Assembly: GCF_964213995.1 (NCBI RefSeq)
Contig: NC_135805.1
Location: 140,616,001-140,680,000 of the forward strand
Direction of reading: 5' to 3'
Length of the DNA stretch: 64,000 nt
Source: Mustelus asterias
Lineage: Eukaryota
Both the position numbers and the translations under genes were made by a program. The notes under the pieces were generated by a model. It made no database searches, had not been told where the DNA came from, and saw nothing but the letters and a program-made list of their open reading frames with translations. Below, piece after piece: positions 2,234 through 52,383 of the stretch (positions are counted from its first letter, which is position 1; each line of letters begins with the position of its first letter).

Positions 2234-2270
2234 CACAAGCTTTCGGAGCCTTAAGCTCCTTCTTCAGGTG
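2234..2270 (-). ncRNA. Minimal hammerhead motif (inverted pLTR copy)
   Basis: Reverse complement is identical to 2769-2805. Confidence 0.75.
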
Positions 2271-2768
2271 ATTGGGAATTCTGTTCACAAACAGGGCATA
2301 TAAAGACACAAACTCAATTTATAGTCTTGCCTGGTGTTCACCGCTCGACAATCACCAGGCAAGACTGTTCTCTTCCTGTTGGGGAGCACTTCAGCGGTCA
2401 CGGGCATTCGGCCTCTGATATTCGGGTAAGCGTTCTCCAAGGCGGCCTTCACAACACACGACGGTGCAGAGTCGCTGAGCTGAAACTGATAGCCAAGTTC
2501 CGCACACATGAGGACGGCCTCAACCGGGATATTGGGTTCATGTCACACTATCTGTAATCCCTACAGCTTGCCTGGACTTGCAGAATTTCACTGGCTGTCC
2601 TGTCTGGAGACAATACACATCTCTTTAACCTGTCTTGATGCTCTCTCTCCACTCACATTGTTTGTACCTTTAAGACTTGATTAGCTGTAAGTATTCGCAT
2701 TCCAACCATTATTCATGTAAATTGAGTTTGTGTCTTTATATGCCCTGTTTGTGAACAGAATTCCCACT

Positions 2769-2805
2769 CACCTGAAGAAGGAGCTTAAGGCTCCGAAAGC
2801 TTGTG
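2769..2805 (+). ncRNA. Minimal type-I hammerhead ribozyme motif in PLE pLTR
   Basis: CAC-CUGAAGA-A-GGAGC-UUAAG-GCUCC-GAAA-GC-UU-GUG. Confidence 0.75.
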
Positions 2806-3016
2806 TGGCTTTTGCTACCAAATAAACCTGTTGGACTTTAACCTGGTGTTGTTAAACTTCTTACTCTGTTTACCCCAGTCCAATGCCAGCGGGGGCAGGG
2901 GGGCAGCAATGAGGCCAGTGATATCTGTATGGGGAGGAGTAACAGCGATGTCTTGGTGGGGGTTTGTGGGGGGCGGCAATGAGGGCAGCGATGTTTGTAT
3001 GGGGAGGGAGGCCAGC

Positions 3017-3748
3017 GAATGGCAGAGTCATCAGGAGTATAGAAACACAGAGGGACCTAGGTGTGCAAGTCCACAAATCCTTGAAGGTGGCAACACAGGT
3101 GGAGAAGGTGGTGAAGAAGGCATATGGTATGCTTGCCTTTATAGGACGGGGTATAGAGTATAAAAGCTGGAGTCTGATGTTGCAGCTGTATAGAACGCTG
3201 GTTAGGCCACATTTGGAGTACTGCGTCCAGTTCTGGTCGCCGCACTACCAGAAGGACGTGGAGGCATTGGAGAGAGTGCAGAGAAGGTTTACCAGGATGT
3301 TGCCTGGTATGGAGGGTCTTAGCTATGAGGAGAGATTGGGTAGACTGGGGTTGTTCTCCTCGGAAAGACGGAGAATGAGGGGAGATCTAATAGAGGTATA
3401 CAAGATTATGAAGGGTATAGATAGGGTGAACAGTGGGAAGCTTTTTCCCAGGTCGGAGGTGACGATCACGGGGGGTCACGGGCTTAAGCTGAGAGGGGCG
3501 AAGTATAACTCAGACATCAGAGGGACGTTTTTTACACACAGGGTGGTGGGGGCCTGGAATGCGCTGCCAAGTAAGGTGGTGGAGGCAGACACGCTGACAT
3601 CGTTTAAGACTTACCTGGATAGTCACATGAGCAGCCTGGGAATGGAGGGCTACAAACGATTGGTCTAGTTGGACCAAGGAGCGGCACAGGCTTGGAGGGC
3701 CGAAGGGCCTATTTCCTGTGCTGTACTGTTCTTTGTTCTTTGTTCTTT
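3017..3748 (+). mobile_element. 5'-truncated CR1 (RT C-terminus open, (TGTTCTT)n tail)
   Basis: QRDLGVQVH..LYRTLVRPHLEYCVQFWSP..RTFFTHRVVGAWNALP in ORF 2964..3668. Confidence 0.95.
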
Positions 3749-5526
3749 GATGTCTGTGGGGAAGGGGGGGGGGGGTGTTGTGGCTGCCAGCAATGAGGCC
3801 AGCGATGTCTGTATGGGGAGGGGGGCCAGTGATGTCTGTATGGGAGGGGGCAGCGATGTCTGTGGGGGTGGGATGGCAGTGATCTGGATGCTGGGAGGTG
3901 TCTCAGCGATGTGCACATGCGTGGGTTCCCACTCATCCTGCCGATTTCAGACTCTTTGGCGTAAATAGGCCCCCCCCCCGGCACCCCGAGCGTTTAATGA
4001 TATTCGCGATTGTGCATTGCAGAGTGGGGAGATTAGGGTCTGAAGTTGCACTGAAAAAAGAGTCATGATCTAGACCAGTTTACTCGCCAATTCAGCACTT
4101 TTGGGAGAATCACCCCCATAATGTGGGAAAAGGTGAACTTGTCCTCTTTGCAGGAAAAATACGAAAGCTGCTTATTATTTAAATCAGACTTTTTCAACCC
4201 TCAGCAGTGAACCTATCAGCCCTAACGTGGGAGAGAAACGAGCAGCGAATACTGACAGCTGTGAGTATGTGGAGAGAAAAGGAGAAGACTTTAGGAGGAG
4301 GAGAGAATGCGGGGCGTGTGGGGCCTCAACCTTTCCCCAGCCTCTCCACTCCCCTCTTTCCTTGCTTCAGGTCTCTCTCTTCCCGTCTCTTTTGCGAATG
4401 AGTGAGGGTGAGTAAGTGTGATGGGTGAGTGAGTGTTGTTTTGAGATTGGGTGGGTGGTAGAGTGAAGATGCTTGGATGAGTGAGTGTGATTGGGTGATG
4501 GTAAATGAGTGGCTGATAGTGAGTCAGACTGTGTGTGTGTGTGAGGATGTCCAGGTGCAGCAGGCTCATCAAGGTGACATTTTTCTCGATGATTTTCCAT
4601 TCAGGCTTAGCTTTCCTTGCCTGTTGTCCACAGCCAAGCTGGGGACTCCTCCATTTGGCTCTTCCATCTCCATTTAGGTAATTAGGGATGGGTAATAAAT
4701 GCTGGCCAGCCAGTGATGCCCATGTCCCACGAATGAATAAAAAAAAACATTTCTTCCTCTCCATTGCTATTGTCCCAATTCTCCATACTTATTAGCTTTC
4801 AGTAATCCTGACTGTGTATAGTCAGGTAGCAATATAGATCACTGGCTGGATATTTTAATGTTGGTGTCTTTCTTTAAGAAATGCATATCACTATGCAACT
4901 CGGCAGACTGTCAGGACTGGAAGGGAAGGTTAGAGCAAAAACCGGATTGGCTGTGCAGACATCTTGCACCAAGTGTGTACCAGTACTGGGAATCCAGGCA
5001 GCCATGGTCTCAGCCACATCTCTCCCAATTTCTTATGTCTTTGTGTACAGTTCAACATTTGGAAATTCTCCATTTGTTGTCAATTATGTCGCCTGTATAC
5101 TTTCACTTGGTTCTATTTCTGAATTTTTCTGTGCAATGATCATTCACCTTAATGGATTTTTATTTTGTAAAGGGATATTCTCGGCCCATGGAATACCTGG
5201 AATATTGTGTGTGCGCGTGTGTCTGAGACTGTGAAAGTGTCTGTGTGTAAGAGTGCATGTGTGTCTGTGTCACTCCCAGTCTCAGGATTCTCATTCACCC
5301 CCACCCCTACACAGCAACATATACTCTCCACCCGCTCTCAGTAGGTGGGGGTGAGTAAATCAGCACCCTGAGACTCGGAGTGAGCTGGAAACACACACAC
5401 CCCTTCACAGTTTAATGGTCATCTTTATTAATTGCTCTTTTTAATTATCATCGCATTGCTTTGACATTGCTTTATTTTTGCTCAGCAAGTAGTTTATTTG
5501 TTCATAGTTCATTCTTTTAAAACAAA

Positions 5527-6097
5527 TAATGTTTAATGCTCCAGTTGTACAGGGTATTGATGAGACCACATTTGGAGTAGTGTGTGTAGTTTTGATCTCC
5601 TTATTTAAGAATGGATATAAATATATTAGAAGCAGTTCAGAAAAAGTTTACTCGACTGATGTCTGGGATGGGGAGGTTATCTTGTGAGGAAAGCTTGGAC
5701 AGGCTGGGCCTGTATCCAATGGTGTTTAGAAGAATGAGATCTGATGTTATGTAAGACCCTGAGAGGACTTAATAGGGTGGATGGTGAAAGGATCTCTTGT
5801 AGGAGAGACTACAACTAGAGGACACATTTAAAAATAAAGGGTCTCTAATTTAAGACTGAGGAGGTGAGAAGAATTTTTTTCACTGAGGGTCATGACTCTT
5901 TGGAATTCTCTTCCCTAAAGAAGAGGGTCATTGAATATTTTTAAGGCAGAGGCAAATAGATTCTTGACTAAAAACAGAATCAAAAGTTATCAGAAAGTGG
6001 AGTTAAGGCCACAAATAGATCCGTCATAACCTTATTGAATGGTGGAGTAGGCTCGAGGGACTGAATAACCTACTCCTGCTCCTAATTCATATGTTTG
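5527..6097 (+). mobile_element. Old, degenerate CR1 3' fragment
   Basis: LYRVLMRPHLE*CV*F*SPYLR-like sequence; 3'UTR ..GGAGTAGGCTCGAGGGACTGAATAACCTACTCC.. Confidence 0.85.
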
Positions 6098-6683
6098 TGA
6101 CTGACCCTTCCTAAACTTAACCTGTCTATCACTTTGCACGTCTACCACCTTACACGTCTACCATCTTGCCCACATTCAAAGACTGGTCCTTAAATATGGC
6201 AGTTGGTGCCGTAAAAAGGCAACACATTCTGTCTTCCCCGATTCCATTCAAATGATGCTGCAATGTGCGTTTCTGTGACAGCTGGGATTGGAAGAAACGC
6301 ACAGCAGCATTTAGTCAGGGAAATTTGTGTGCAGTGGTAATCTGACTATCATTGCAGATCTGGGCCAATAATTTTACCTTATGAAGGAAAGACTATTGTA
6401 ATATATATATAATAGTCATCTTTGGTGCAATATCATTCTGGTGCTCAAATACATAGATATTATGCCCAATCTATTTGTACCTAGATATCTCAGAAGGCTA
6501 AGGGGGAAGTCAGATTATATAATTTGTGCAACACGATGAAATCAGGAAACTGACTGTGCAAGTACAGCAACTGTGAGAATGCATCATAAATATGCCTTTT
6601 TGCTTTGAGACTATTAAAATTTCCAAAGATGTGCATTTATATATGATTTTAAAGATAATGGCCCCTATCATGATTATTTCCCC

Positions 6684-6965
6684 AACAACAACCTGTATTT
6701 ATATAGCGTATTTAATGTAATGAAACATCCTAAGGTACTTTACAGGAGCATTATAAGACATGTATGACATTGAGCTACATAAGGAGATAATAGACCAGAT
6801 GACCCAAATCTTGGTCAAAGAGGTCTGTTTTAAAATGTGTCTTAAAGGAGGAAAGCAAGCTAGAGAGGCAGAGAGGTGCAGGAATTGAATTCCAGAGCTT
6901 GGGCTAAGGCAACTGAAGGCATGGCTACTAATAATAGTTGAACAATTGTGAATGCACAAGAGACT
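6684..6965 (-). mobile_element. L2-like LINE 3' end (related copies at about 55010-55690 and 62990-63130)
   Basis: Shared motif ..TATTTATATAGC..CATCC(C/T)A(A/G)GG..CTT(T/C)ACA..CAGATGACCAAA..GGTCAAAGAG at these loci. Confidence 0.55.
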
Positions 6966-8218
6966 TGCATTAGTCATATTTTCACCAAATACCAGATAAA
7001 ACAAAAAGCCTCACTGGAGTGGAGCAATTACAGATGAAATGGAAACAAAAGAGCTTTAGGTACAGGACAGGTTATTTCCTGCTGACTGACACCAGTGTTA
7101 ATTATTTTGCTTAAGGGGTTCACAAAATAGCTGGTTATAATGTGACAGATATTCAGTGCTTTCAGACGTGTGAAATCATTAAAATGACAAGTTTAATCAA
7201 ATGTGTCACCAAAAGATATAGCTCCTAAAATAACTAATGCAAACATCAAAATTTAGCTTTTCCAAGGAATGTGACCTTTTTTCTATCCTTGAATTCAATT
7301 AACAAGTAAAAATCCTCTAATCTATTATGCCACAAACATACAGTGGTTGAATCCAATAGAAAAGAATCTATATTCTCTACAGACTTTTCAGTAAAATTTA
7401 TCAATTCTGTGGCATTCATTGATTAAAGTGAACATGTTTTCTGCTTTGATAAATAGTGTGTTACGATCTTATTTGGGACTGTTAATACCTGAAGTAGAGA
7501 CCTGAACACCTTGTAATTAACTGAGAACTACGCCACATTATTAAACAAGAATTAAACAAAACGGGGACTATTAACAACACTGCAGCTTATCAAGATTGTC
7601 CTATAACTTCAGTTATAACCCTCCCAGGAGTTTCCTTACCTCTCAAAATCTTCATTCATTTGAATCCAACCCCAAAAGTATGCCACAGACTTCTGGAATT
7701 TACTTTAATTCGCCTTGCTGTTCCAACTATTCCTCCGAGGTTAGATTCTGAGAGTCATTCCATTTGCTTTTGTCTATGTGAACCTCCAATTTTTCCTTTA
7801 CCGGCTGTGGATATCTCATCATCTTGTTCAGGCTAATGGCAGATACTGAATTGGCTTCCTAAGTTAACTCTCCTGACTGCTTTTTGCCACAATGTTGTGT
7901 GAGGACCATTGTAGCTTTCTTCCATGAGCTTTAAACTAGCCAATCTTCTGGCTATTTTGCCATCACAAAATCTAAACTGAGATAGAGCTCCACCCACCTT
8001 CCATGTGGTGATCAATGAAGTAAGGTTAAGGAAACCTTGTGAATAATTCCGACCTCTAATGGAATTTTAGGGCCCCTTTTCCAGAATTGCTGGCTTTTAG
8101 CTTTTTTTATGGAGCTACCCTGACTCTACCAAGAAGTCCAGAAATGAGTCATCTATTGTTCAAGTTCTTTCATCATCAACACAGATCTTGCATGTTAAAC
8201 ATAGGTTAGTGTAGTAAC

Positions 8219-8402
8219 TTTTACAGATGCACAGTAGAAAGCACTCTTTCTGGTCGTATCACAGCTTGGTATGGCTCCTGCTCTGCCCAAGACCACAAGA
8301 AACTACAAAAGGTCACAAATGTAGCCCAATCCATCACGCAAACCATCCTCCCATCCATTGACTCTGTCTACACTTCCTGCTGCCTCGGCAAAGCAGCCAG
8401 CT
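8219..8402 (+). mobile_element. Rex1/Babar LINE fragment
   Basis: FYRCTVESTLSGRITAWYGSCSAQDHKKLQKV; homologous to about 63460-63650. Confidence 0.8.
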
Positions 8403-8798
8403 TAGTGTGACATGAACCCAATATCCCGGTTGAGGCCGTCACACTATTTGTAACCCCCACAGTTGCCTGGACCTGCAGAGTTTCACTGGCTGTCTTGTCT
8501 GGAGACAATACACATCTTTTTAGCCTGTCTTGATGCTCTCTCCACTCACGTTGTTTTGTTTCTTAAAGACTTGATTAGCTGTAAGTATTCGCATTCCAAC
8601 CATTATTCATGTAAATTGAGTTTGTGTCTTTATATGCCCTGTTTGTGAACAGAATTCCCACTCACCTGAAGAAGGGGCTTGGAGCTCCGAAAGCTTGTGT
8701 GGCTTTTGCTACCAAATAAACCTGTTGGACTTTAACCTGGTGTTGTTAAACTTCTTACTGTGTTTACCCCAGTCCAACGCCGGCATCTCCACATCATG
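8403..8798 (+). mobile_element. 5'-truncated PLE with short 5' inversion
   Basis: Matches 2545-2890 and has the full 3' end ..GGCATCTCCACATCAT. 8404-8440 is an inverted copy of the GIY-YIG tail. Confidence 0.9.
8663..8699 (+). ncRNA. Minimal hammerhead motif
   Basis: CAC-CUGAAGA-A-GGGGCU-UGG-AGCUCC-GAAA-GC-UU-GUG. Confidence 0.72.
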
Positions 8799-8799
8799 T

Positions 8800-9830
8800 C
8801 AGCCACCAAAGCCAGAGGTCGCCTTGGTCACCACTGTGGGCATCGAAATCTCTAGCTCAGATGCTTGTACATAAGAACTTGTTGCTCTCCTGTGTAAGTG
8901 GTTGACATGCTCTTTACTCGATGGTCCTGTGCCTCCAGCACATAAGAGACTGGCCCCGTCTTCTCCACAACTCTCCCTGGCACCCAGGCAGGTACACACC
9001 AAGATTCCTTGCCAAAACAAGGCCATCAACATTAAACAACTTGTCCCTTTCTGAGAACATGATACTGTTTCTGAGAGGTTTGCCTAGCCTTCACCCTCCC
9101 CAACAAATTTGAAACACAAAGTCTAAACAGGTACGCAGGTGCCGACCCCTCAGCAATTCTGCAGGCATGACCCCAGTGGTGGTGTAAAGTTTAGTGTTGT
9201 AAGGTAGCAAAAAACTTGACAATTGCAATTGCAGTGGCTCCTATGAGCTTGCTTCTTCGTTGAAGCCTTGAACATCTACACAGCTTGTTCCGCCAAGCCA
9301 TTCGAGGCAGGATGGGAGGGTCCAGACCTGAGATGACGAATGCCATTATATTTGTCAAAAGTCTGAAATTCGACAGCCGGGAATTGCCACCTCGTTGTCT
9401 GATATCAACACTTTGGGAAGACTATGAATTTGCAAAGATCTGGGAAGACTATGAATTTGCAAAGATCTGTCTCAGTTTTTCAATAGTAGATATAGTTGCA
9501 GTGGATCTCATGAGCTGAGCATCCACACATTTGGAATGGGCATCTACTACATGTGCCCCAAAAAAAGGCCCAACAAAACCTACATGAAACCATGACCACG
9601 AATGGTCTGACCACTCCCAGGGGTGCATGTTCGCTAATGGCGGTAATGGTTCCTGAGTCTGAAAACTTTCATACAGCCCAACCATTTGTTCAATTTCTCT
9701 GTCATTGCCAGGCCACCAGACATAGCTTCTGGCCAGCATTTTCATTCTGCTCCGGCAACGATGGGCATCATGAAACTCTTGGAGCAGTGGCCTCTCAAAT
9801 GGCTAAATAGCCAATTAACTAATTAAGTAA
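8800..9830 (-). mobile_element. Decayed Gypsy LTR retrotransposon integrase region
   Basis: MKMLARSYVWWPG.DREIEQMV..PWEW..HVGFVGPF..VVDAHSK; further on TTGVMPAELLRGRHLRT. Confidence 0.85.
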
Positions 9831-11821
9831 ATATCATCGATTTAGTGATGCAATGGGAACTGGAGATTGAGAAGAGTAACAAATCGCCAAAGTCCAAGTT
9901 AGTTCAAACAATTTTTGACATATAGTCTACTCTTGATTTTCAGAGCTTTTTTGTGCACTGAAAAAAATTAAATTGTCCAAAGTTTTCAATTAAGTAATGT
10001 ACATAGCATAGACAAGTAGAAAAATAATGCTGAAACATTGAATGAATAGATAATTTGAATTAAGTAACTTATAATTAAGAGGAGTAGACTGAATCTCAAT
10101 AACTGGGTAATTTGGCAATTGAGTGTAACCTTCATGGGAATTTCCCAAGAAGTTTCAACTTCTGATGAGCAATTCCCCTGTTCCCCAGGACCTTCCATCA
10201 ATGTCTTCAACTCTGAGTTAGAGATTTCACGCGATCCAATGTTCTTACCAGATGGTTACCCAGGAAATGTCTGACAAATTAAAATCTAATCTAATTCCTG
10301 GGTAACTTCGCACTGACCCCCGCCCCCTCCAATTACTCACAAGGACATCCCAACTACCCCTTTCCCCAACCCAGCCTGAATACCCCCAACCACTGATTAC
10401 CCCTTTGAGTACTCTGACTAGATCTGACTAATCCCCAACTACTTCCTGACCCAACTCAATTTTGCTGACGTGACCATGCCTTGACTACACGTCTAACCCC
10501 CAGACCCAACTTCCACCTCAGCCACACTACCCACCTCACCCACCAATACACCCTATTCACCTACCTACCAGCCTCACCCATCCCGTCCACTTACCTCACT
10601 TACCCGACCACATTACTCTTTCACAAATTCATCCATTGACTCATTGAATAGCATTCGTTAATTTAGCCGTTCACTAACATTCAAGCTGGACATTTAAACT
10701 TGCATATGGCAAGTGGTGCTATAAAGAGGTGTGTGTCCTGTCTTCCCCTTGACTCTACTCCGCTTAGACAAAGCTGTCCGAGGGATGCTGCTTTCTACAT
10801 TTCTGGAAAAGCCAGCTTGGAAAGTCCTGGAAGAAATGCAGAGCGGCATCAGATTGGGGAAATTTTGAGCAGAGCGGCAATCCGATGATAACTACTCCTC
10901 AGAATACCTGAACCAATATGTCATGCATACTGGGCAGGAATTAAGGTGGAGTATACCTATGTATTTCAGGCAACACCTAAATTTAGTAGTCAATTGAATG
11001 AAAGAGGCAGAGATAGACAGTCTTGGTAAATAGCCTGGAGCACTTCAAATATGTTGGGAAGAGGCAACCACAAGTGGTGTCAGCCCCAGCTAGCCGTAAA
11101 GAGTGGAAGAACTTAACTGCATGGGATGGGGAAGGGGACAGAAGACCATGGAAAGGAGGAAATAGAGGATGGCAAACGTGCTGCTACGAGGGCAATGAAA
11201 GTATTGGAGGAAGCAGGCAATCTGGGGCAACAAGCTACTGAGCTTGGAAGAATTAAACACCAAGCATTAGATAACTTAGACTTGCATGTCCACCCAATGG
11301 TGATATGAAGCAGGAGGGACAGTTTGTTGGAGCAAGGGGCCAACTAAGAATGTTGTACATTTTCAGGAGGGAGGTTGCTGTGTTATTAAATGCCATCTTT
11401 AATCCTAGGACAACTTTGTAGTGCAGGAAAAAGCAGCCAATGTAAGAGCTGTCTGTTCCCCTGACCATTCCTTTGGCCTCTTTATATATGGAGCAATTCT
11501 TTATTTATTATGCTGACAATTTCAAAGGCAAAGTGGCACTTGACTGTGAGGAGGGGGGTGAATGCGCGACTGAAATAGTTGCTGAGCATGTTGACTCACA
11601 TCTCAGATGTGCTGCTCTAAAAATAATATTGGATCAACAGGCATGAAGGCATTGTAGACAAACTCTGAGGTCTTGAGACAAATGGTAGGATGGCTTCAAT
11701 CAGATAAAGAGGCAGCACATGGCTAAAGAAGCAATTTTGATTCTTTATAAGCAGCAAAATCAATAGTTAGGGATTGGTTAACTCACTTTGCTAGGTGGTG
11801 AGCATGTTGTTCAGAATAATG

Positions 11822-12147
11822 ATGTGGAGATGCCGGCGTTGGACTGGGGTAAGCACAGTAAGAAATCTCTCAACACCAGGTTAAAGTCCAACAGGTTTAT
11901 TTGGCAGCACTAGCTTTCGGAGTCTCCAGCTCCGTCATCAGGTGAGTGAGGACTTGTGTTCACAAACAGGGCATATAAAGACACAAACTCAATTTACAAG
12001 ATATTGTAAATTGAGTTTGTATCTTTATATGCCCTGTTTGTGAACACAAGTCCTCACTCACCTGATGAATGAGCTTGAGACTCCGAAAGCTAGTGCTGCC
12101 AAATAAACCTGTTGGACTTTAACTTGGTGTTGTGAGACTTCTTATTG
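11822..12147. mobile_element. Fold-back mini-PLE (two inverted pLTRs) with 14-bp TSD
   Basis: About 11858-12000 and 12004-12147 are inverted repeats. TGTTCAGAATAATG at 11808-11821 and 12148-12161. Inserted in a tRNA-like SINE head. Confidence 0.88.
11908..11944 (-). ncRNA. Minimal hammerhead motif
   Basis: CAC-CUGAUGA-C-GGAG-CUGGAGA-CUCC-GAAA-GC-UA-GUG. Partner copy on + at 12059-12095. Confidence 0.7.
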
Positions 12148-12969
12148 TGTTCAGAATAATGCCAGGCAGCATAGGTTTGATTCCAGTTCCAGTTGAGGTG
12201 GACTTGGGACCTACCCATTAACCCTGCCCCGAGAGTGGAAGGAAATGACAAACCTTCAAAAATAAAAACTGTCAAAAAAAAACAGCACAGGATAAAGCAA
12301 CAGCAGACAATGAGCTACCTTCGGGCACAGCACACATCATGTCATGCCAAAATCAACATTACAATGATGATCAATCTGTCTTGCAGACAGGTCAACTGAA
12401 AGATTTGTAGATAATGGTACAAATAAATGTGTTTCTTAACAACATGTTACTGAGGAAACTGGATAATCAGTTTTTAGTCGCAATTTTGATGAAGTATCAG
12501 ACTTCCACGTGAGGGATCACCTAGGTAACAGGGACCACAATATAATTAGATTCAACTTGATCAGAAAAGTTGGGGGAAACGGTGTAATTTGGATGTCACA
12601 AACATTTGTGTGGGTGAGCAAAATAGATTACAGGTCGTGGAAGAGATTCAGAGGAGGACCACTATATTAGTATCTAGTATAAAAGGCCCTCTGTTATCAT
12701 GATAATATTTATCTTTCTATCTTAGAAAATTATAGAATTCAGGGAGCTTACACTGAGGTCTTATAAATAATGAAAGTATTAGACTTGCTCCATGTGTACA
12801 GGCTATTTGAATTCCATAGGTACTGAGGGTATGGGGAGGCGGGGAACACATAAAAGTTGCTTTAGCATAGTAGCAGGTCAGAATAGACCTTGGACTTTTT
12901 TCCTGCAATTCTACCTCTCTCATGGGATTTATTGGCTCTTGAAGGGGCAATGAATGTTGCGGTGTTATA

Positions 12970-13910
12970 AGAGTACAGGAAATAGTAACAGCAGTATACC
13001 ATATGGCCCCTAGAGCCTGTTCAGCCATTTGGTACAATCATGACTGATCTTCTGCCTCAACTCCACTTTCTTGCCTGCTTCCCATATCCCTTGATTCTCT
13101 GAGAAACCAAAACACAATCTATCTCAGCATTAGACTTTACTCAATAGTGAGCAACCACAGCCTTCTGGGGTAGAGAATTACAAAGATTCATAAGCCTTTG
13201 AGTGAAGAAATTCCTCTTCAACTCAGTTGTAAATAATCAGCTCCTTATCTTAAGACTATGCCTCCATGTTCTAGATTTCCCAGCCAGGGGAAACAGCCTC
13301 TCAATGTCTATCATGTTAAGCCACTTCAGAATCTTCTATGTTTCAGTGAGATCATTTCTCATTCTTCAAATCTCCAGAGAGTCAAGGACCAATTTAATCA
13401 AACTTTCATCATATCTCATCCCAGGAACCAATTCAGTGAATCTTCATTATAAACTCTGGCAAATTTACCCTTCCTTTGATATAGGAACGCTATTCCAGGT
13501 GTAGTCTCACCAACACACTGTGTAGTTGTAACAAGACTTCCATATTATTGGTAATTAGGCCATCATGTTATTTGCCTTTTTAATTGCTTGCTGTACCTGC
13601 ATGCTAACTTTCCCTGTTCCTTGTACGAGTACATCCAAGCCTCTTTGAACATCAACATTTACAAGTTTCACATCATTTAAAAAATATTATGCTTTTCTAT
13701 ACTTACAACCAAAGTGACTAAACTCAGACTTCCCTACATTCTCCTACATCTGCCATCTGTCTCCATCTCTTGTGTCCTCTTTGTGTCCTCACAGCCTACA
13801 TTTCCACCCAGCTTTGTATTGTCAGCAAACTTGGATACATTGCTTTCTGTATTTTTGCCTCATGTATATTGCAAATAGCTGAGGCTAAGCATTGATCTTT
13901 ATATTGCACC
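12970..13910 (-). mobile_element. Old, degenerate CR1 3' fragment
   Basis: The reverse strand shows SKFAD and VRLHLE-like motifs and a CR1-type 3'UTR. Confidence 0.75.
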
Positions 13911-13964
13911 AAGATTGAATGGAACAAACACAATGGACTGACTGGGTTGTGTTTTTCCTATCCC

Positions 13965-17097: not shown

Positions 17098-17179
17098 ATA
17101 CATGGCAGTGTTTAAAGGGATACTTTTTGACTTATGAGAAAGTGTGCAAGAGGAGAGAGTAACAACACGGCAGTTGTGA

Positions 17180-19880: not shown

Positions 19881-20105
19881 ACACATTCTGCTGCATAGAC
19901 TGGCCTTTGGCAGTACACCTTGGATAACCCCTTCATGCACCCTCTAACCCTCAGCCAATACCTTTGTGTCCCTCTGTACCAACGTACATTGTCAAAGCCA
20001 CTGCTTCTCATTATTGTTCCAGTTCATCTAAATCAGTGGGTCACATCCTGAGGTGGCCTTATTCTAACCAGTGCAGCTGCAAGTCTCCCTGGCTCATTGT
20101 ACTGA

Positions 20106-20426
20106 GTAAGAAGTCTCTCAACACCAGGTTAAAGTCCAATAGGTTTATTTGGTAGCACAAGCCACTAGCTTTCGGAGCACTGTCCCTTCATCAGGTAAGT
20201 GGGAGTTCTGTTCACAAACAGGGCATGTAAAGATAATTCATTATTTTGTAAATTGAGTGTGTGTCTTTATATGCCCTGTTTGTGAACAGAACTCCCACTT
20301 ACCTGATGAAGGGGCAGCACTCTGAAAGCTAGAGGCTTGTGCTACCAAATAAACCTGTTGGGCTTTAACCTGGTGTTGTGAGACTTCTTACTGTGTTTAC
20401 CCCAGTCCGACGCCAGCATCTCCACA
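20106..20426. mobile_element. Fold-back mini-PLE with 12-bp TSD
   Basis: About 20105-20233 is inverted relative to about 20263-20392. TCATTGTACTGA at 20094-20105 and 20427-20438. Confidence 0.88.
20163..20197 (-). ncRNA. Minimal hammerhead motif (degenerate stem II)
   Basis: UAC-CUGAUGA-AGGGACAGUGCUCC-GAAA-GC-UA-GUG. Partner copy on + at 20300-20334. Confidence 0.6.
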
Positions 20427-21869
20427 TCATTGTACTGATACAGACTGACTACAAAACCTCCATCCTCCTGCACTTTCACCAGGATCAGTCTGACAGCTCT
20501 GCTTCTGCCTATTAAAGAGATCCTCTTGGTTAATCCCCCCATTTAAACAAATGAATGAATTGCTGCTGCTTTGCTAAATGGTTTCCTGAGGTGCAGCTGC
20601 CTCATTTTCTTTTTACGCGGCACAAAGTGTGGGGCCCAAAAGTGCTCCTTAAGACTCAAAATACCTGTCAATTGATTTATTAATGCCTTTAAGATTGAGT
20701 AATGGCCTTATCTGACCACCCGCTGCTTCTGGCAGGAAGCAGCCACCTCCAGAAAAATTGCTAGTAAACAACAACACATCAGGCTACTGAAATGCCATCC
20801 TCTAATGTGAAATAGCCAATGCTCCTGCCCCAAAAATCACCTCTTAGGTTTTGGGAAAATTCCCCCCATAGTGTTTAGATCTGTTAGTCTTCTAGGGAGC
20901 ATCTATTTTCTAATGGTCAATGTTGGCCTCAGGTTTTAGCAGAATTAGTGCAGGGCTATGTTAGAGAAAGTCAAGGATCAGTGTTGTTAAGATGAAATTC
21001 CACTATCATGCTGAAACATCCAGTTATGTTCTGCGATACGTAGCCAACGTTTGGCTCTGTTCCCTGGGGCCTAAAAATCTTCTTATTAAAGACTCGCCAC
21101 AGAAACCTCAGGAATATCTTAACTCTATGATCAACAAGTAAAGAGACATGATTATTTACCATCAATACAATAATCTATGAATAAGGGCAAGAAGAGGACA
21201 ATAAGTCCATCTCCGATCAAATGTGACCAATTTCCAACCTGCACCAGACTTGTATCCTCCTGCTTACTGCTGACTCAGGAATGTTCTGAAATCTTCTGGA
21301 AACTCCTATTGAGTATAGAACTTGCTGCAGTATAGAACTAGGTGGCAGCCAAGTCTATCGATTGAATGCTGTATGCAGGGAGGAGCTATTTGTCATTTTG
21401 TTTAGCTGTGCTTTCTTCAGCTTATCATCTTTGGTTTGATCAAGGTTTTTCACAAAGTACCTTTCTAATTCAAACTGCTCAATTTATTTCATTTTTAAAA
21501 GTTAGCTGGGAAAATAGCCAGCATAACTCAAGAACGATATATCATCTTGGAAATAGTAGTGTCTCCTGTTTGCAACAGAAGAGGGTGTTGCACCCACAAT
21601 GATCGCATCAATGTGCACCTCCAAATCTTGTACAAATTTTAAAAGATACTTTGTTATTTAATACAATACATTGTTATTTAATGTTTGCTTTTGGATTAAT
21701 GGCACCATTGGAAAAAAATCACATTGCTGACATATACCTTGCACGTTATTGACACGAAGACTCCAATAACTTTTAGTTATAATCTAAAACAGTATTTGGG
21801 TTTTGTTGTGCCTGCTGCACAGTATGTTTTAACCCTTATATGGTGAACAAAGAACTGCAAGTTGACTTC

Positions 21870-24340: not shown

Positions 24341-24359
24341 CCATAATAACCCTTGCCTC

Positions 24360-28849: not shown

Positions 28850-30000
28850 CTATTTAAAAACAGAGGTAGCAGGAAAACAGGAATTATAAACCAGTAAACC
28901 AGACGCCAGTAGTGGGGAACATTCTAGAATCCTGTATACTGACATGGATAGGAAACTGGTTGGCAGACAGGAAATAAGCAATAGGAATAAACGGATCTTT
29001 TTCCTAATGGCAGGCAGTGACTAGTGGGGTACCGCAGGAATCAGTGCTGAGACCCTAGCTATTCACTATATAAATTATTTAGATGGGGGAGCTAAATGTT
29101 ATATCTCCAAATATGCAGATGAGACAAAACTGGGTGGGAGGGTGAGCTGTGCGGAGGATGCAGAGATCCTTCAGTGTAATTTGGACAAGTTGAGTGAGTG
29201 GGCAAATGAATAGCAGTATAATTTGGATAAACCTGAGATTATCCACTTTGGTAGCAGATTACTATCTGAATGGCCATAAATTAGGAGAGGGGAATGTGCA
29301 ACAGGACCTGGGTGTCCTTTTACACCAGTCACTGAAGGTAAGCATGCAGTTGCAGCAGGCAGTAAGAGGCAAATGGTATGTTGGGCTTCATAGCGAGAGG
29401 ATTCGAGTGTAGGAACAGGGGTGTTTTGCTGTAATTATACAAGGCCTTGGTGAGACCACACCTGGAGTACTGTGTGCAGTTTTGGTCTATTTATCTGAGG
29501 AAGGATGCTCTTGCTGTGGAGGGAGTGCAGAGAAGGTTTACCAGACTGATTCCTGGGATGGCAGGACTGAAGTATGAGGAGAAATTGAGTCAATTAGGAT
29601 TGTATTCGCTGGAGTTCAGATGAATTGAGGGGGGGATCTCCGAGAAACCTATAATACTCTAACAGTAGTAGACATGGTAGATGAAAGAAGAATGTTCCCG
29701 ATGGTGGGGGTGTGTAGAACCAGAAGTCACAGCCTGAGGATACAAGGAAGACCATTTAGGACAAAGATGAGAAATTGTTTCACCCTGAGAGTGGTCAGCC
29801 TGTGGAATTCACGACCACAGAAAGTAGTTGACACCAAAACATTGCATGTTTTCAAGAAGCAGTTGGATATAGCATTTGGGTTGCAGGAGATCAAAGGATG
29901 TGGGGGAAATGCGGGATCAGGTTATTGAGGTCGATGATGATAATGAATGGCAGAGCAGGCTTGAATGGCCTCCTCCTGCTCCTATATTCTATGTTTCTAT
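28850..30000 (+). mobile_element. Older degenerate CR1
   Basis: NYKPVN, GVPQESVL and LVRPHLEYCVQFW motifs, CR1 3'UTR and TTCTATG tail. Confidence 0.85.
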
Positions 30001-30006
30001 ATAATA

Positions 30007-30320
30007 CGGTGGCTCAGTGGTTAGCACTGCTGCCTCACAGCGACTGGGTTTAATTCCAGCCTTGGGGACTGTCTGTTTGGAGTTTGTCCGTTCTCTCGGT
30101 GTCAGCTTGGGTTTCCTCCAGGTTCTCCAGTATCCTTCCACAGTCCAAAGATGGGCAGGTTAGGTAGATTGCCCATGCTAAATTGCCTCTTAGTGTCCAA
30201 ACATGTGTAAGTTAGGGGGATTAGCGAGATAGATGTTTGGGGTTACGGGGATAGGGCAGAAGGTCTGTCGAAGAGTAGGTGTTCACTTGATGGGCCTCCT
30301 CCTGTACTATAGGGATTCAA
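30007..30320 (+). mobile_element. V-SINE/HE1-like tRNA SINE
   Basis: GGTGGCTCAGTGGTTAGCACTGCTGCCTCACAGCG head; core as in the 13965 copy. Confidence 0.85.
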
Positions 30321-30479
30321 TGAATCTGAAACAACATGAGTTCCTCCCCCGAATTTACTCGGAGCCCATGTTAACGAATACTGGATCTTCTCAGGGCTCT
30401 GTACTTTCACCTTTGCTTTTCATCCTCTATATAAATGATTGTTGATCAGAGTAAAATGATATAACAATCCTGAAATGAC

Positions 30480-32600
30480 GGGTAAATTGGAAGGAGGCAT
30501 TCTTGGGGAAAAGTACCGAAGGAAAGTGGAGGATTTTCAAGGAATGTTTGTCTGGAGCTCTGCATGACAACGTTCCGATGAGACAGGGGGGTGTTGGTAG
30601 GGTACGGGAACCGTGGTGCACGAAGGTTGTGATGAACCTGGTGAATAAGAAAAGAGAGGCGTACAGAAGGTTCAGAGAGCTAGGAGGTGTTAAGGATTTA
30701 GAGGAGTATACGGGATGTAGGAAGGAGCTTAAGAAGGAAATTAGGAGAGCGAGAAGGGGTCATGAGAAGACCTTGGCGGGTAAGATTAAGGAGAATCCCA
30801 AGGCTTTCTACAAATATGTCAAGAGTAAAAGGATGAGATGTGAAGGCATAGGACCCTTAAAAGGTGAAGGGGGAAAAGTTTGTGCGGAACCGTTAGAAAT
30901 GGCGGAGGTGCTTAATGAATACTTTACCTCGGTATTCACGGTGGAAAGGGATCTGGGTGGTTGTTCTGCTGGTTTGCGGTGGACAGAAAGGACAAAAAGG
31001 ATCGAGCATGTGGACATAAAGAAAGAGGATGTGTTGGAACTATTGAATGGCATCAAGGTTGGTAAGTCGCCGGGACCGGATGGGATGTACCCCAGGTTAC
31101 TGTGGGAGGCGAGGGAGGAGATTGCGGAGCCTTTGGCGATGATCTTTGCATCGTCGATGGAGACGGGAGAGGTTCCGGAGGATTGGAGGATTGCAGATGT
31201 GGTCCCTATATTCAAGAAAGGGAACAGGGACAGCCCGGGAAATTACCGACCGGTGAGTCTAACCTCAGTGGTTGGTAAGTTGATGGAGAGGATCCTGAGA
31301 GACAGGATTTATGATCATCTAGAGAAGTTTAGTATGATCAAAAGTAGTCAGCACGGCTTTGTCAAGGGCAGGTCGTGCCTTACGAGCCTGGTTGAGTTCT
31401 TTGAAAATGTGACCAAACACATTGACGAAGGAAGAGCGGTGGATGTGGTCTATATGGACTTCAGCAAGGCGTTCGATAAGGTCCCCCATGCAAGACTTCT
31501 TGAGAAAGTGAGAGGATCCAAGGGGCTGTTGCCTTGTGGATCCAGAACTGGCTTGCCTGCAGAAGGCAGAGAGTGGCTGTGGAGGGGCCTTTCTCTGCAT
31601 GGAGGTCAGTGACCAGTGGAGTGCCCCAGGGATCTGTTCTGGGATTTTTGCTGTTTGTCATTTTCATAAATGAGGAAGTGGAGGGATGGGTTGGTAAGTT
31701 TGCTGACGACACCAAGGTAGGTGGTGTTGTGGATAGTTTGGAGGGATGTCAGAAGTTGCAGCGAGACATAGATAGAATGCAAGACTGGGCGGAGAAGTGG
31801 CAGATGGACTTCAACCCGGATAAGTGTGTAGTGATCCATTTTGGCAGATCCAATGGGATGAAGCAGCAGTATAATATGAAGGGTACCATTCTTAGCAGTG
31901 TAGAGGATCAGAAGGACCTTGGGGTCCGGGTCCATAGGACTCTTAAATCGGCCTCGCAGGTGGAGGATGCGGTCAAGAAGGCGTATGGCGTACTAGCCTT
32001 CATTAATCGAGGGATTGAGTTTAGGAGTCGGCAGATAATGCTGCAGCTTTATAGGACCCTGGTTAGACCCCATTTGGAGTACTGCGCGCAGTTCTGGTCA
32101 CCTCATTACAGGAAAGATGTTGAAGCCATTGAAAGGGTGCAGAGGAGATTTACAAGGATGTTGCCTGGATTGGGGGGCATGCCTTATGAGGATAGGTTGA
32201 GGGAGCTTGGTCTCTTCTCCCTGGAGAGACGAAGGATGAGAGGTGATCTGATAGAGGTTTACAAGATGTTGAGAGGTCTGGATAGGGTAGACTCTCAGAG
32301 GCTATTTCCAAGGGCTGAAATGGTTGCTACGAGAGGACACAGGTTTAAGGTGCTGGGGGGTAGGTACAGAGGAGATGTCAGGGGTAAGTTTTTCACTCCG
32401 AGGGTGGTGGGTGAGTGGAATCGGCTGACGTCGGTGGTGGTGGAGGCAAACTCGTTGGGGTCTTTTAAGAGACTTCTGGATGAGTACATGGGATTTAATG
32501 GGATTGAGGGCTATAGATAGGCCTAGAGGTAGGGATATGATCAGCGCAACTTGTGGGCCGAAGGGCCTGTTTGTGCTGTGGCTTTCTATGTTCTATGTTC
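30480..32600 (+). mobile_element. 2.1-kb 5'-truncated CR1 ORF2 with one frameshift near 31515
   Basis: ORFs 30503..31612 and 31534..32520 together give the linker and complete RT; (TTCTATG)n tail. Confidence 0.95.
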
Positions 32601-32679
32601 TAATATGGTACTTGTGGGTCTCGTAAGGAATAAAAAAGGAAACTGTAGGATCTCGCAGTTTGTAAAATGGTATGAATTT

Positions 32680-33208
32680 TTTTTAAATTCACTTGTGGGA
32701 CATGGGCATTGCTGGCTGGCTAGCATTTATTGCCTATCCCTGGTTGCCCTTGAGAAGGTGGTGGTGAAGTGCCTCCTTGAAACACTGTAGTCTACGTCTG
32801 TGGGTTGACCCACAAAGCCGTTAGGGAGGGAATTCCAGGATTTTGACCCAGCGACTGTGAAGGAACGGTAATATTTTCAAGTCAGGATGGTGAGTGGCTT
32901 GGCAGGGATCTTGCAGATGATGCTGTCCCCATGCATCTGCTACCCTGTCCTTCCAGATCAAAGTGATTGTGGGTTTGGAAGGTGCTGTCTAAGGATCTTT
33001 GATGAATTGCTGCAGTGCATATTGTAGATAGCACACACTGCTGCTACTGAGCGTCGGTGGTGGAGGGAGTGGATGTTTGTAGATGTGGTGTCAATCAAGC
33101 GGGTTTCTTTGTCCTGGATGGTGTCAAGCTTCTTCAGTGTTGTTAGAACTGCACTCATCCAAGCAAGTGGTGAGTATTCCATCACACTCCTTACTTGTGA
33201 CTTGTAGA
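32680..33208 (-). mobile_element. 3' fragment of the LINE family at 41280-42450
   Basis: MMEYSPLAWMSAVLTTLKKLDTIQDK. Confidence 0.85.
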
Positions 33209-33720
33209 TAATTCTCTTAAATTGAATGAAAACAAGACATAATAACTAATTATAGACTTTACGAAAAAGCCAGTTAATTATATTGTTCCTTGAAGATTCA
33301 TAATGTGGACAGTGAAATAGTTACTATGATTACCTAGGTATCAAAGTAGATGACAAGTTGAATTGGAGGGAGGGAGCAGTACATAATGTACTGTGGTGAC
33401 CAAGGAACATACAAATTTATGCTACATTAGAAAATTAAAATCTTTTTGAGTAGACCCCACAATCATCTGACTCTTCTATACTGCTCTAGTTTGCAGTGTA
33501 AAGGTTAATGTGGGACTGAGTCCAATATCACCCAGTGATGGAGGAGAATATATTACCTACACCCAGGATCAGTTGAGTGTTAAACAGTTGTGTGAACCAG
33601 CAAGCATGGAGACAGCTCGTAGCTTGTTCCCTTCACTGTGCATTTGTAAGTAGTTCTAAGAGTCAATAAAGACTTGCAGTTAACTTACTTATGATTACAA
33701 AGATTTCTTCAGACGTACTG

Positions 33721-35441
33721 GGAACTTGTGTATGGAGTCAGTAAAGATAGGCGAGGTGAAGAATGAATACTTTTCTTCAGTGTTCACCAAGGAGAGGGGC
33801 CATGTTTTTGAGGAAGAGAAGGTGTTACAGGCTAATAGGCTGGAGGAAATAGATGTTCGGAGGGAGGATGTCCTGGCAGTTTTGAATAAACTGAAGGTCG
33901 ATAAGTCCCCTGGGCCTGATGAAATGTATCCTAGGATTCTTTGGGAGGCAAGGGATGAGATTGCAGAGCCTTTCGCTTTGATCTTTGGGTCCTCGTTGTC
34001 CACAGGGATGGTGCCAGAGGACTGGAGAATGGCGAATGTTGTTCCTCTGTTTAAGAAAGGGAATAGAAATGACCCTGATAATTATAGACCGGTTAGTCTT
34101 ACTTCGGTGGTTGGTAAATTGATGGAAAAGGTCCTTAGAGATGGGATTTACGACCATTTAGAAAGATGCAGATTAATCCGGGATAGTCAGCACGGATTCG
34201 TGAAGGGCAAGTCGTGCCTCACAAATTTGATAGAATTTTTTGAGGAGGTAACTAAGTGTGTTGATGAAGGTAGGGCAGTTGATGTCATATACATGGATTT
34301 TAGTAAGGCGTTTGATATGGTCCCGCATGGTCGGCTTATGATGAAAGTGAGGAGGTGTGGGATAGAGGGAAAGTTGGCCGATTGGATAGGTGACTGGCTG
34401 TCTGATCGAAGACAGAGGGTGGTGGTCGATGGAAAATTTTCGGATTGGAGGCAGGTTGCTAGCGGAGTGCCGCAGGGGTCAGTGCTTGGTCCTCTGCTCT
34501 GTGATTTTTATTAATGACTTAGAGGAGGGGGCTGAAGGGTGGATCAGTAAATTTGCTGATGACACCAAGATTAGTGGAGTAGTGGATGAGGTGGAGGGCT
34601 GTTGTAGGCTGCAAAGAGACATAGATAGGATGCAAAGCTGGGCTGAAAAATGGCAAATGGAGTTTAACCCTGATAAATGTGAGGTGATTCATTTTGGTAG
34701 GACTAATTTAAATGTGGATTACAGGGTCAAAGGTAGGGTTCTGAAGACTGTGGAGGAACAGAGAGATCTTGGGGTCCATATCCACAGATCTCTAAAGGTT
34801 GCCACTCAAGTGGATAGAGCTGTGAAGAAGGCCTATAGTGTGTTAGCTTTTATTAACGGGGTTGGAGTTTAAGAGCCGTGGGGTTATGCTGCAACTGTAC
34901 AGGATCTTGGTGAGACCACATTTGGAATATTGTGTGCAGTTCTGGTCACCTCACTATCAGAAGGATGTGGAAGCGCTGGAAAGAGACTTACCAAGATGCT
35001 GCCTGGTTTGGAGGGTAGGTCTTATGAGTAAAGGTTGAGGGAGCTAGGGCTATTCTCTCTGGAGCGGAGGAGGCTGAGGGGAGACTTAATAGAGGTTTAT
35101 AAAATGATGAAGGGGATAGATAGAGTGAACGTTCAAAGACTATTTCCTTGGGTGGATGGAGCTATTACAAGGGGGCATAACTATAGGGTTCGTGGTGGGA
35201 GATATAGGAAGGATATCAGAGGTAGGTTCTTTACGCAGAGAGTGGTTGGGGTGTGGAATGGACTGCCTGCAGTGATAGTGGAGTCAGACACTTTAGGAAC
35301 ATTTAAGCGGTTATTAGATAGGCACATGGAGCGCACCAGGATGATAGGCAGTGGGATAGCTTGATCTTGGTTTCAGATAAAGCTCGGCATAACATCGTGG
35401 GCCGAAGGGCCTGTTCTGTGCTCTACTGTTCTATGTTCTAT
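33721..35441 (+). mobile_element. 5'-truncated CR1 with 6-bp TSD GTACTG
   Basis: RT ORFs 33726..34514, 34390..34872 and 35035..35364; GTACTG at 33715-33720 and 35442-35447. Confidence 0.95.
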
Positions 35442-37234
35442 GTACTGAACCACAACCAACACCCTACACAACGGTGGCAGCTTGTGGAAAACCCAAGATC
35501 TTGCAGATATTAGAAAGGAAAGCTAAGATGCTCAGAAAAAAATTAACAATGCAGTCTGACCTGAAAATAAGCTCCAGGAGTAGAGGCACAGGGGAAACAT
35601 CACCAGGAAAAAACTACAGAGAAAGGCTTGGAAGCTGAAGGCAGAAATTTAAAATTCCTTACTGAAGCAGAAGAATCCATTGAATCTCCTTTGGGAGTCC
35701 AGCTTCAAATCCCAGACTACAGAGCTTGCAGGTTAAGCAGAGGTGAGCTAAATCCTTGAAAGTTCCAAGCAACAGCAAGTCCTGAGAAATCTTTAAATAA
35801 TTCAGAGTCAGAAGTACAGTTTGAACAAACCTGTTGCTAAAATCTGATTACTGAGTTGTAGATAAACGTGTTGTATCTGAGCTTTGTCACGAAGGAAAAA
35901 AAGAATTAATTAAAAAACATCCTGGAAAATTGCAACTTCTAAACTCAGCTGAGAGCAAGCAAAAGCCAGGATTCACCAAATATGTGTCTTTAAAGTAAAA
36001 CACTGAGCGACAAAATTCAGCAGGCAGTCAATATAGGAAGCAATTGTTAACATTTTCTTTTTTAAGCTGAGTACAATTGCCCTAATAATGGAGCTTCAAG
36101 ACCTGGCAAGCAAAGGAAATCCCTTTGTCTCCAAGTGAATGGTGACACCATCTTGATATTCAGACAGCTCTTAAAGCAGAACCAACATGGATCGGAATCT
36201 TCACTTACAAATTAATTTGGAATAATCCAAGCCCCAGTTCAATCACATAATTGGGGACTTTGGGAGGATAAGATTCCTAATATACAGCATCACTTCAAAG
36301 TCAGAAGCAGTGTCGGCTTATCACACTGCTTTATTCAGTTGGCCCAATTGAAGAAGATATTATTGCAAGTCAGGGAATCAAGGAAGTATCTGTCAAATTT
36401 GAAGTACTAAAATAATTTGACTCTTATACTCAGAAGAGTGAAATTTAACAAGTGAGTTCAGCAGCCTGTTGATATGTTCATCAATGGTATGTGCAGTATG
36501 GCAGAAGGTTGCGAATATGGAGTCTTAAAATTTGAACTCAGAACAGCGGTAGGAATAACAGATGATACATTCTGATCTCATACAAGCAAAGGAATATCTA
36601 ACCCTGGAAAGGCAATCCAGGTAGTTACATAGTCAGAACTCTGTGAACAGCACTAAATTATTTTAAGGGGAGAAAAGGCCAACCCACAGTTCAGTTAGTT
36701 AAGCAATAAAAAAAACTAGGACATTCCAGGCCAAGGAAAGCAATAGCTGTACCAGGTAGCAGAGCAACTATGCCACACTGTGGAATAAAGCGCCTTCAAA
36801 GTGAAATCAATGTCCTGCAATTTCAGCCTATTGCTTTCAGTGCAATAGGATTGGACACTACGGCTGCAGTTTTAACAGCTCACCCGCCCATCGATGGGTG
36901 GAGTGAGCTGATAAAATCACGCGACAGCCGAGAAATAAGGATCATGCCCGATTTCTCGACTCTCGCGATCTTACTGGCACCGGATTTCCGGCACGGTCAG
37001 CCTTGCCCATTTCTGGCGAGAGGCTGAATAATTTATTTAAATAGTGATTTGCATCTGTTTGGCGAACCCGGCACTCAATTGTCCGGGCTCACTTGTTTTT
37101 ATTACCTTTTCGGGAGAGGTTCCCTCCGGGGAGGAAAACACCTGCTCCCCATGATGGGGAACAGTCGTGTTGCCTTCACTGGTCGAACTGGAGGCCATTG
37201 AGGCTCCCCTCGGGAGGTCGATAGCTAGGGGGAG

Positions 37235-37994
37235 GGTAAACACAGTAAGAAGTCTCACAACACCAGGTTAAAGTCCAACAGGTTTATTTGGTAGCAAATA
37301 CCATAAGCTTTCGGAGCACTGCTCCTTTGTCAGATGGAGTGGAAATGTGCTCTCAAACAGTGCACAGACACAGAAATCAAATTACAGAATACTAATTAGA
37401 ATGCAAATCTCTACAGCCAGCCAGGTCTTAAAGGTACAGACAATGTGGGTGGAGGGAGCATTCAACACAGGTTAAAGAGATGTGTATTGTCTCCAGACAG
37501 AACAGCTAGTGAGATTCTGCAAGACCAGGGGGCAAGCTGTGGGGGTTACTGATAATGTGACATAAATCCAACATCCCGATTTAGGCCATCCTCATGTGTG
37601 CGGAACTTGGCTATCAGTTTCTGCTCAGCGACTCTGCGCTGTCGTGTGTCATGAAGGCCGCCTTGGAGAACACTTACCTGAAGATCCAAAGGCTGAATGC
37701 CCGTGACTGCTGAAGTGCTCCCCCACAGGAAGAGAAGAGTCTTGCCTGGTGATTGTCGAGCGGTGTTCATTCATCCGTTGTCGTAGCGTCTGCATGGTTT
37801 CCCCAATGTACCATGCCTCGGGACATCCTTTCCTGCAGCGCATCAGGTAGACAACGTTGGCCGAGTTGCAAGAGTAGGTACTGTGTACCTGGTAGATGGT
37901 GTTCTCACGTGAGATGATGGCATCCGTGTCAATGATCCGGCACGTCTTTCAGAGGTTGCTGTGGCAGGGTTGTGTGGTGTCGTGGGAGGGTGGC
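37235..37994 (-). mobile_element. 5'-truncated PLE with most of the GIY-YIG endonuclease, inside a Harbinger-type MITE (about 36862-38666)
   Basis: NVVYLMRCRKGCPEAWYIGETMQTLRQRMNEHR..AEQKLIAKFRTHEDGLNRD*, followed by a pLTR. Confidence 0.92.
37301..37337 (-). ncRNA. Minimal hammerhead motif with a core substitution
   Basis: CCAU-CUGACAA-A-GGAGC-AGU-GCUCC-GAAA-GC-UU-AUGG; G8>A, likely CpG decay. Confidence 0.65.
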
Positions 37995-52333: not shown

Positions 52334-52383
52334 GCATCCCTCACTTTCAGCCCCACTACTCAGGATCCCTCCCCCCCCCCGAA

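Follow-up and report, generated by a model that had tools for sequence, protein, structure and literature searches.

Ends of Penelope-like element copies at the predicted cut site of minimal hammerhead motifs in Mustelus asterias

Minimal hammerhead motifs in the window

We analysed a 64,000-nucleotide (nt) stretch of the Mustelus asterias genome (assembly GCF_964213995.1, contig NC_135805.1, positions 140,616,001 to 140,680,000; hereafter the window), in which a first-pass annotation had marked eight minimal hammerhead ribozyme motifs in terminal repeats of Penelope-like elements (PLEs). The motifs, named here by start position and strand, are almost certainly minimal type-I hammerheads of the kind known from PLEs. 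That class of motif is already known; the result added here is that genomic copy ends pile up at the scissile bond.

All eight motifs lie where the first-pass annotation had placed them, on the same strands (Table 1), and H17 and N1.1 of the 2769(+) motif fall at 2802/2803, also as annotated. The pattern CUGANGA that it had given to all eight does not hold for 37301(-), which reads CUGACAA; the CUGANGA...GAAA...UH core is present in the other seven, the exception being G8. The G8-to-A change in 37301(-) is typical of CpG decay. This copy is predicted to be inactive because the hammerhead of an anole PLE requires G8, its cutting being abolished by G8C (PMC11167929). Stem II pairing, said to be mostly kept, is so with exceptions: an A-C or C-A mismatch occurs in 20163(-) and 11908(-), G10.1 is gone in 12059(+), and 20300(+) has G10.1-U11.1. 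The proposed stem III, a single A-U pair closing GC, had to be given up. An A-U pair cannot close a 2-nt GC loop; this structure is impossible in a monomer, and helix III could therefore form only as an AGCU/AGCU duplex in a dimer.

The motif is not a chance occurrence, as its 3' half has 12,490 exact matches in the genome and the reversed control has none. An Rfam scan of the window returned no hammerhead family among nine matches at E≤5, only microRNA-like matches on inverted repeats, and monomer folding compared with shuffled sequences gave z-scores of -0.72 to +0.59 across all eight motifs, none of them significant. On the opposite strand of positions 2761-2775 and their equivalents, the 5' strand of stem I together with CUG forms a consensus splice donor (CAG/GTGAGT or CAG/GTAAGT); this consensus is present in the CAC/UAC subfamilies and not in the CCAU subfamily, and many copies could act as antisense donors.

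Comparison of the window with itself indicated that the eight motifs are not independent: they belong to five truncated insertions of one repeat family and include three head-to-head pairs. Because the motifs of a head-to-head pair are on opposite strands, a single transcript could not bring the two together as a dimer. The window copies, which are truncated and either solo or in antisense pairs, are likely inert fossils.

Table 1. Hammerhead motifs and the insertions that carry them (positions within the window)
Feature	Position	Strand	Remarks
Insertion 1, inverted short terminal-repeat arm	2165..2321	-	Ends at the short 3' end
Minimal hammerhead	2234..2270	-	Core and stems intact; predicted cut between 2237 and 2236
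Insertion 1, main arm	2339..2890	+	Broken GIY-YIG C-terminus (stop at 2555-2557), 3' untranslated region/terminal repeat, part of tail
Minimal hammerhead	2769..2805	+	Core and stems intact; predicted cut 2802/2803
Candidate poly(A) signal, AATAAA	2821..2826	+	18 nt past cut site, then GU-rich tract; read from sequence only
Insertion 2	8403..8798	+	Short inverted ORF piece (8403-8440) and terminal repeat with full tail; end is the ORF start codon position
Minimal hammerhead	8663..8699	+	Core and stems intact; predicted cut 8696/8697
Insertion 3, head-to-head pair (long end -, short end +)	11808..12161		Target duplication 11808-11821 / 12148-12161, which includes bases common to the element ends
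Minimal hammerhead	11908..11944	-	Core intact, stem II 4 bp
Minimal hammerhead	12059..12095	+	Core intact, without G10.1
Insertion 4, head-to-head pair	20094..20438		12-nt target duplication 20094-20105 / 20427-20438
Minimal hammerhead	20163..20197	-	Core intact, single stem II mismatch
Decayed hammerhead	20300..20334	+	Stem I broken (UAC/GAG), G10.1-U11.1
Insertion 5, 5'-truncated CCAU/AUGG subfamily copy	37231..37985	-	Cys linker and GIY-YIG domain, to terminal repeat; 5' boundary approximate
Hammerhead with G8-to-A, predicted inactive	37301..37337	-	4-bp stem I
GIY-YIG endonuclease remnant	37693..37948	-	PF01541, E=1.5e-4, 22.4 bits vs cut-off 22.6
Ninth, older, internally deleted terminal-repeat copy	59560..59690	-	CUGAUGA and stem II 5' strand kept, GAAA half lost

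The host element and the anatomy of its insertions

Judging from its domains and layout, the host element of the motifs is a Neptune-type PLE that is abundant in the genome. The PLE terminal-repeat context named in the first-pass annotation was borne out by a GIY-YIG remnant upstream of the 37301 copy and by near-full-length genomic relatives that encode a reverse transcriptase (RT) and GIY-YIG in one open reading frame (ORF). Used as a query against the 3.68-Gb genome itself, the GIY-YIG remnant gave 56,930 candidates, 150 of which were scored. Exact matches to a 24-nt block just downstream of the hammerhead number 186,026 (reversed control, 0), and at least 186,026 pseudo-long-terminal-repeat (pLTR) ends of the element are present in the genome.

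The element unit is ~3.0 kb long and contains the single RT and GIY-YIG ORF. Frames of 887 and 898 amino acids (aa) carry PF00078, and their C-terminus is the same as the GIY-YIG (PF01541) fragment in the window. Between the RT and the endonuclease they have C-x4-C-x2-C, which fits the CX2-5CxxC motif of Neptune; a CX2-5CxxC motif in this place defines the Neptune layout and is common to Nematis (PMC8557442). The Cys motif points to a Neptune/Nematis layout, on which the Neptune label used here is based.

Tandem units have periods of 2,971-3,012 nt. The hammerhead lies ~100 nt upstream of the ORF start, and in tandem units the ATG directly follows the tail, so the hammerhead lies wholly in untranslated sequence. 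A tandem array on one contig (L081/L082, G000:C14:4434000-4450000) has at least five near-full-length units with a period of 2,971-2,995 nt, and at another locus (G000:C9:32535887-32536099) the junction between tail and ORF start is matched three times, 90 nt apart. We considered whether the window motifs belong to non-LTR retrozymes, membership of which needs at least two consecutive tandem units with complete hammerheads, and rejected this assignment; the nearest same-strand motifs are 3.4 kb apart and in separate insertions.

In the subfamily that we call A, 3' ends are bimodal, at ~62-66 and 98-102 nt past the cut site. Head-to-head pairs combined one long and one short end in 60 of 69 cases, and in 54 of the 69 a flank word of 10-16 nt, which can include a few element bases, was common to both sides. 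Inverted pairs are flanked by a duplication of ~10-14 nt, as insertions 3 and 4 in the window also show. The combination of long and short ends matches the two RT start sites and two-strand priming of the anole PLE (PMC11167929), and by this analogy we infer the mechanism here.

Conservation of the core across genomic copies

We picked 190 ends by the downstream block only; 133 of these span the hammerhead, and 129 could be parsed with one mismatch allowed per box. The core was intact in 105 of the 133 spanning copies, 93 of which also had both stems intact. Among the majority sequences of five subfamilies, 0 of 13 core columns differed, against 44 of 91 neighbouring columns (23/56 upstream, 7/15 in stem/loop II and 14/20 in the linker); N7 and H17 also vary. 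This difference is significant (Fisher p=5e-4), with the caveat that columns are not independent. The subfamilies are partly defined by the linker and the changes represent few events, so the comparison is support rather than proof.

Covariation in stem I, as annotated, is real; it is, however, a difference between subfamilies, pair 1 being C-G in 73 and U-A in 51 of the 129 parsed copies. Stem II shows G-C, G-U and A-U exchanges in the same copies, representing few independent events. H17 was U in 71, A in 51, C in seven and G in none. The extra nucleotide annotated between positions 9 and 10.1 was confirmed as an extra A in 128/129 copies, a known feature of PLE minimal hammerheads (PMC4209133). 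The G10.1-C11.1 pair was G-C in 113/129 and G-U in 14/129, and the palindromic positions 15.2 and 16.2 were G in 126/129 and C in 127/129, respectively.

Copy ends at the predicted cut site

Cutting of template RNA by the ribozyme would be expected to make cDNAs primed downstream of the cut terminate by run-off at N1.1. In an unselected sample, six of 187 arms (one of them doubtful) start within 1 nt of the site. This sample alone is not decisive, and we therefore counted ends genome-wide in subfamily A. The first mismatch was at -1 in 2,306 copies, and 22 of 30 checked were true breaks, which gives ~1,691 ends at the site (95% 1,248-2,023). The adjacent positions held fewer: 898 copies at -2 (12/30 true breaks, ~359) and 827 at -3 (17/40, ~351), where chance T's after a site-0 end predict ~423 and ~106, respectively, and several junctions carry added T runs. 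A matched T/GTG control at -52 had 165 copies with 13/20 breaks, or ~164 after the pools were scaled 49:32, ~ten times fewer than the site. The loci classified at these four positions (30, 30, 40 and 20) were not drawn at random; they are the places listed first among the matches on the largest contigs. From a pool near 56,600, the share of subfamily A arms that end at the site is 3-4%. The pile-up lends indirect support to the predicted cut position.

The site also bounds the second arm of a pair. Partners of arms that stop at the site extend past it in only 2/20 cases, whereas the partner was longer in 18/28 control arms (ends from -30 to -3 or +3 to +18, unselected pairs; p=2.5e-4).

The peak tracks the register of the ribozyme. 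Relative to the downstream block, that register is 2 nt more distant in subfamily A than in the other subfamilies. Peaks in their respective registers, less sharp, are also present in two further subfamily groups. At its own site, the CCAU subfamily shows 371 breaks; among the first 100 listed, 33 are arms fused there (counted by eye). At the +1 control of this subfamily, 84 of the first 100 listed breaks start with G; these appear to be GUGG-type copies that contaminate the control. With breaks preceded by C only, we counted by eye ~260 at site 0 vs ~71 at +1 among listed rows. Similarly, 10 of 20 'CCA' junctions checked belong to GUGG subfamilies, in which that position is N1.1. The +6 control has 601 breaks; 77 of 100 listed are preceded by the complement of an arm that starts at GUG, and 14/34 adjoin a subfamily A site-end match. 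As they are mostly partners of GUG-starting arms, the +6 control is not independent of site 0.

Positions 1-14 nt upstream of C3 form a broad zone with 41/216 ends, ~1.4% per position. The excess of 5' ends extends over 1-20 nt upstream of C3. A conserved YCACTC lies close to this excess, which a TATA-like stretch precedes by ~30 nt, and the ends there possibly reflect dispersed transcription starts. A sharp cap-derived start just upstream of stem I was sought in the sampled copies and not found, the ends there forming the broad zone. A separate locus (L301, G000:C4:98883750-98884450) contains three head-to-tail repeats of 111 nt, all of which start at the predicted cut site. The repeats follow a longer copy of subfamily A and are separated from one another by a 12-nt host repeat, and a piece from N1.1 to the short end lies between 12-nt repeats.

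Other features of the window

An apparently intact CR1-like long interspersed nuclear element (LINE) occupies positions 49514-53415 (-), with a 964-aa ORF2 (RVT_1, Exo_endo_phos) and a 343-aa ORF1 (GDSL esterase); many fragments of the same kind occur elsewhere in the window. An ORF at 1254-1721 (-) has a Myb/SANT-like domain (PF13873), and we presume that it may derive from a Harbinger-type transposon. An RT RNase H-like remnant (PF17917) is present at 39923-40345 (+).

Discussion

Thousands of copies end exactly at the predicted cut site, and the explanation we favour is that they do so because the ribozyme cuts some of the germ-line templates. We consider it likely that type-I hammerheads in the terminal repeat of this Neptune-type PLE cut a minority of template RNAs in the germ line.

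Several observations weigh against this explanation, beginning with the indecisive unselected sample, in which 165 of 187 arms (88%) read through the site. The peak in subfamily A (3-4%) is only 2-3 times the level of the broad upstream zone, and +1 and +2 were not counted directly in that subfamily. The raw count in the CCAU subfamily is higher at +1 (441) than at site 0 (371), and when palindromic junctions are set aside, the C-only counts fall to ~137 vs ~71, a ratio of ~1.9. Folding is also unfavourable: the double hammerhead has a predicted energy of -16 to -20 kcal/mol vs -34 to -40 for competing dimers. It can be drawn in all four copies folded and lies 14-23 kcal/mol above the predicted best dimer in each (4/4), under a model that ignores core contacts. 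None of these computations supports the dimer action proposed in the first-pass annotation. Metazoan minimal hammerheads cleave poorly in vitro (PMC4209133), and in the experiments described for the anole PLE, insertion in vitro persisted in ribozyme mutants, and the site coincided with neither the start nor the end of any RNA read (PMC11167929).

The strongest alternative, which we regard as unlikely, accepts the conserved hammerhead fold and attributes the pile-up to a junction hotspot that arises without cutting in vivo, through RT pausing or fold-back at stem I or through microhomology adjacent to the AAGCUU/AGCU palindrome. The palindrome does end at -1 in U variants, and among the CCAU junctions listed at site 0, a third involve a self-complementary AT; yet AGCT-folded junctions were not found in the loci searched (many of them selected), and the peak is present with G or A at N1.1. 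In favour of a hotspot, ends are also non-random in the broad zone upstream of stem I, where there is no cut site. For an RT arriving from the 3' side, however, N1.1 should be the far end of the stem I strand and not its base. A hotspot of junctions between arms also fits poorly with the way the site bounds partner arms and with those site-0 ends that join host DNA without a partner arm (L172, L178, and L301 with a 12-nt duplication).

Alternatively, a real RNA end at the site may come about otherwise, through transcription initiating there, through splicing at a GU donor or through a protein nuclease; we regard this as improbable. Subfamily A and the GUGG subfamilies do have GU at the site, with a branch-point-like CUUAC and a CCCCAG acceptor downstream, and Penelope of D. 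virilis has a known pLTR intron. Against this, the CCAU subfamily starts with AU and has the same ends, long arms extend beyond the acceptor, so that an excised intron cannot be the template, and no GT..AG joint was present among 15 joints listed of 18 in the three contig sets searched, which carry the family; the exact match to the scissile bond would also be a matter of chance. We also rejected an intron enclosing the ribozyme: not all subfamilies retain the donor-like GTAAGT, and none of the joints listed was canonical. That the motif is a passenger of a successful element, conserved only through recent common descent, is very improbable: although the eight copies are one family, the covariation comes from few independent events, the downstream block is also invariant (albeit used as the selection anchor) and Naiad PLEs are described as spreading without canonical hammerheads (PMC8557442), core columns differ in 0/13 vs 30/71 in the upstream region and stem/loop II, and variation falls at N7, H17 (never G) and loop II, with a compensatory double change in stem I.

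Under germ-line cutting by the ribozyme, a transcript from a tandem source would carry hammerheads in both pLTRs, and cutting after H17 would give the RNA a new end, located 65-100 nt upstream of where RT starts. The partner hammerhead would be engaged via the AGCU palindrome, probably aided by the element's own protein, as assumed from the literature. Both strands of a staggered target cut would prime cDNA at the two start sites; on cut RNA, both cDNAs would run off at N1.1 and be joined head-to-head by 1-2 nt of microhomology or added A's. The outcome would be dead-end inverted arms of 65-100 nt bounded by N1.1, whereas copies that pass the site would come from uncut or re-ligated RNA. The AAUAAA 18 nt past the site is upstream of both RT start sites, and long copies would therefore need read-through RNA or a circle, as proposed by Cervera and De la Pena (PMC4209133); how ORF-length copies arise by either route is speculation. 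We lean slightly towards the fuller view that the genome is a fossil record of germ-line self-cleavage by PLE hammerheads, in which both cDNAs stop at the cut, capping insertions at 65-100 nt, and long copies arise via read-through or a hammerhead-to-hammerhead circle.

Minimal type-I hammerheads have been described in the pLTRs of metazoan PLEs, including Xena, Poseidon and Neptune of fish (Cervera and De la Pena 2014, PMC4209133). The motifs reported here share with them the core boxes, the unpaired base between 9 and 10.1, G10.1-C11.1, the palindromic 15.2-16.2, a short helix I, the pLTR location, the predominance of solo truncated copies and close opposite-strand pairs. They differ in helix length, with 5 bp in helix II (7-8 in Schistosoma) and 3-4 bp in helix I, and the copy number is far above the 4,000-9,000 of coelacanth and Xenopus, which were counted by a different method (PMC4209133).

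Like Poseidon PAc of Anolis carolinensis (Frangieh et al. 2024, PMC11167929), the element would have two internal RT start sites that bound a tail of 30-40 nt, with the hammerhead upstream of them and both target strands cut and extended. In PAc, however, the hammerhead contains the start of the ORF, and RT starts 111-118 nt into that ORF, whereas here the hammerhead is untranslated and the tail ends at the ATG; and the PAc reads described did not end at the cut site, whereas genomic copies do so here (PMC11167929). As with the hepatitis delta virus (HDV)-like ribozyme of R2, where the types of 5' junction seen in the genome correspond to the position of self-cleavage (Eickbush et al. 2013, PMC3774820), copy ends follow the predicted cut; the ribozyme and element class are different, and the R2 cut sets the full-length 5' end, whereas here it would yield dead ends of 65-100 nt unless the RNA is re-ligated. 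Non-LTR retrozymes also have pLTR-derived type-I hammerheads, in one chondrichthyan genome among others (Li et al. 2026, bioRxiv 10.64898/2026.07.22.740005); they are tandem non-coding units, whereas in the window, truncated ends of an autonomous element lie dispersed.

PMC8557442 calls the cellular role of PLE hammerheads unclear; in the one PLE examined biochemically, no RNA ends were seen at the cut site (PMC11167929). We found no report of PLE copy ends piling up at a hammerhead site in the titles and opening abstracts searched. The pile-up suggests that copies are kept short by cutting or, alternatively, that cutting supplies a circular template. A large vertebrate family with a truncation map that peaks at the scissile bond makes the role of the ribozyme testable by computation alone. 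If the interpretation is true, it would constitute in vivo evidence for a role of the PLE ribozyme, readable base by base from ~10^5 copies.

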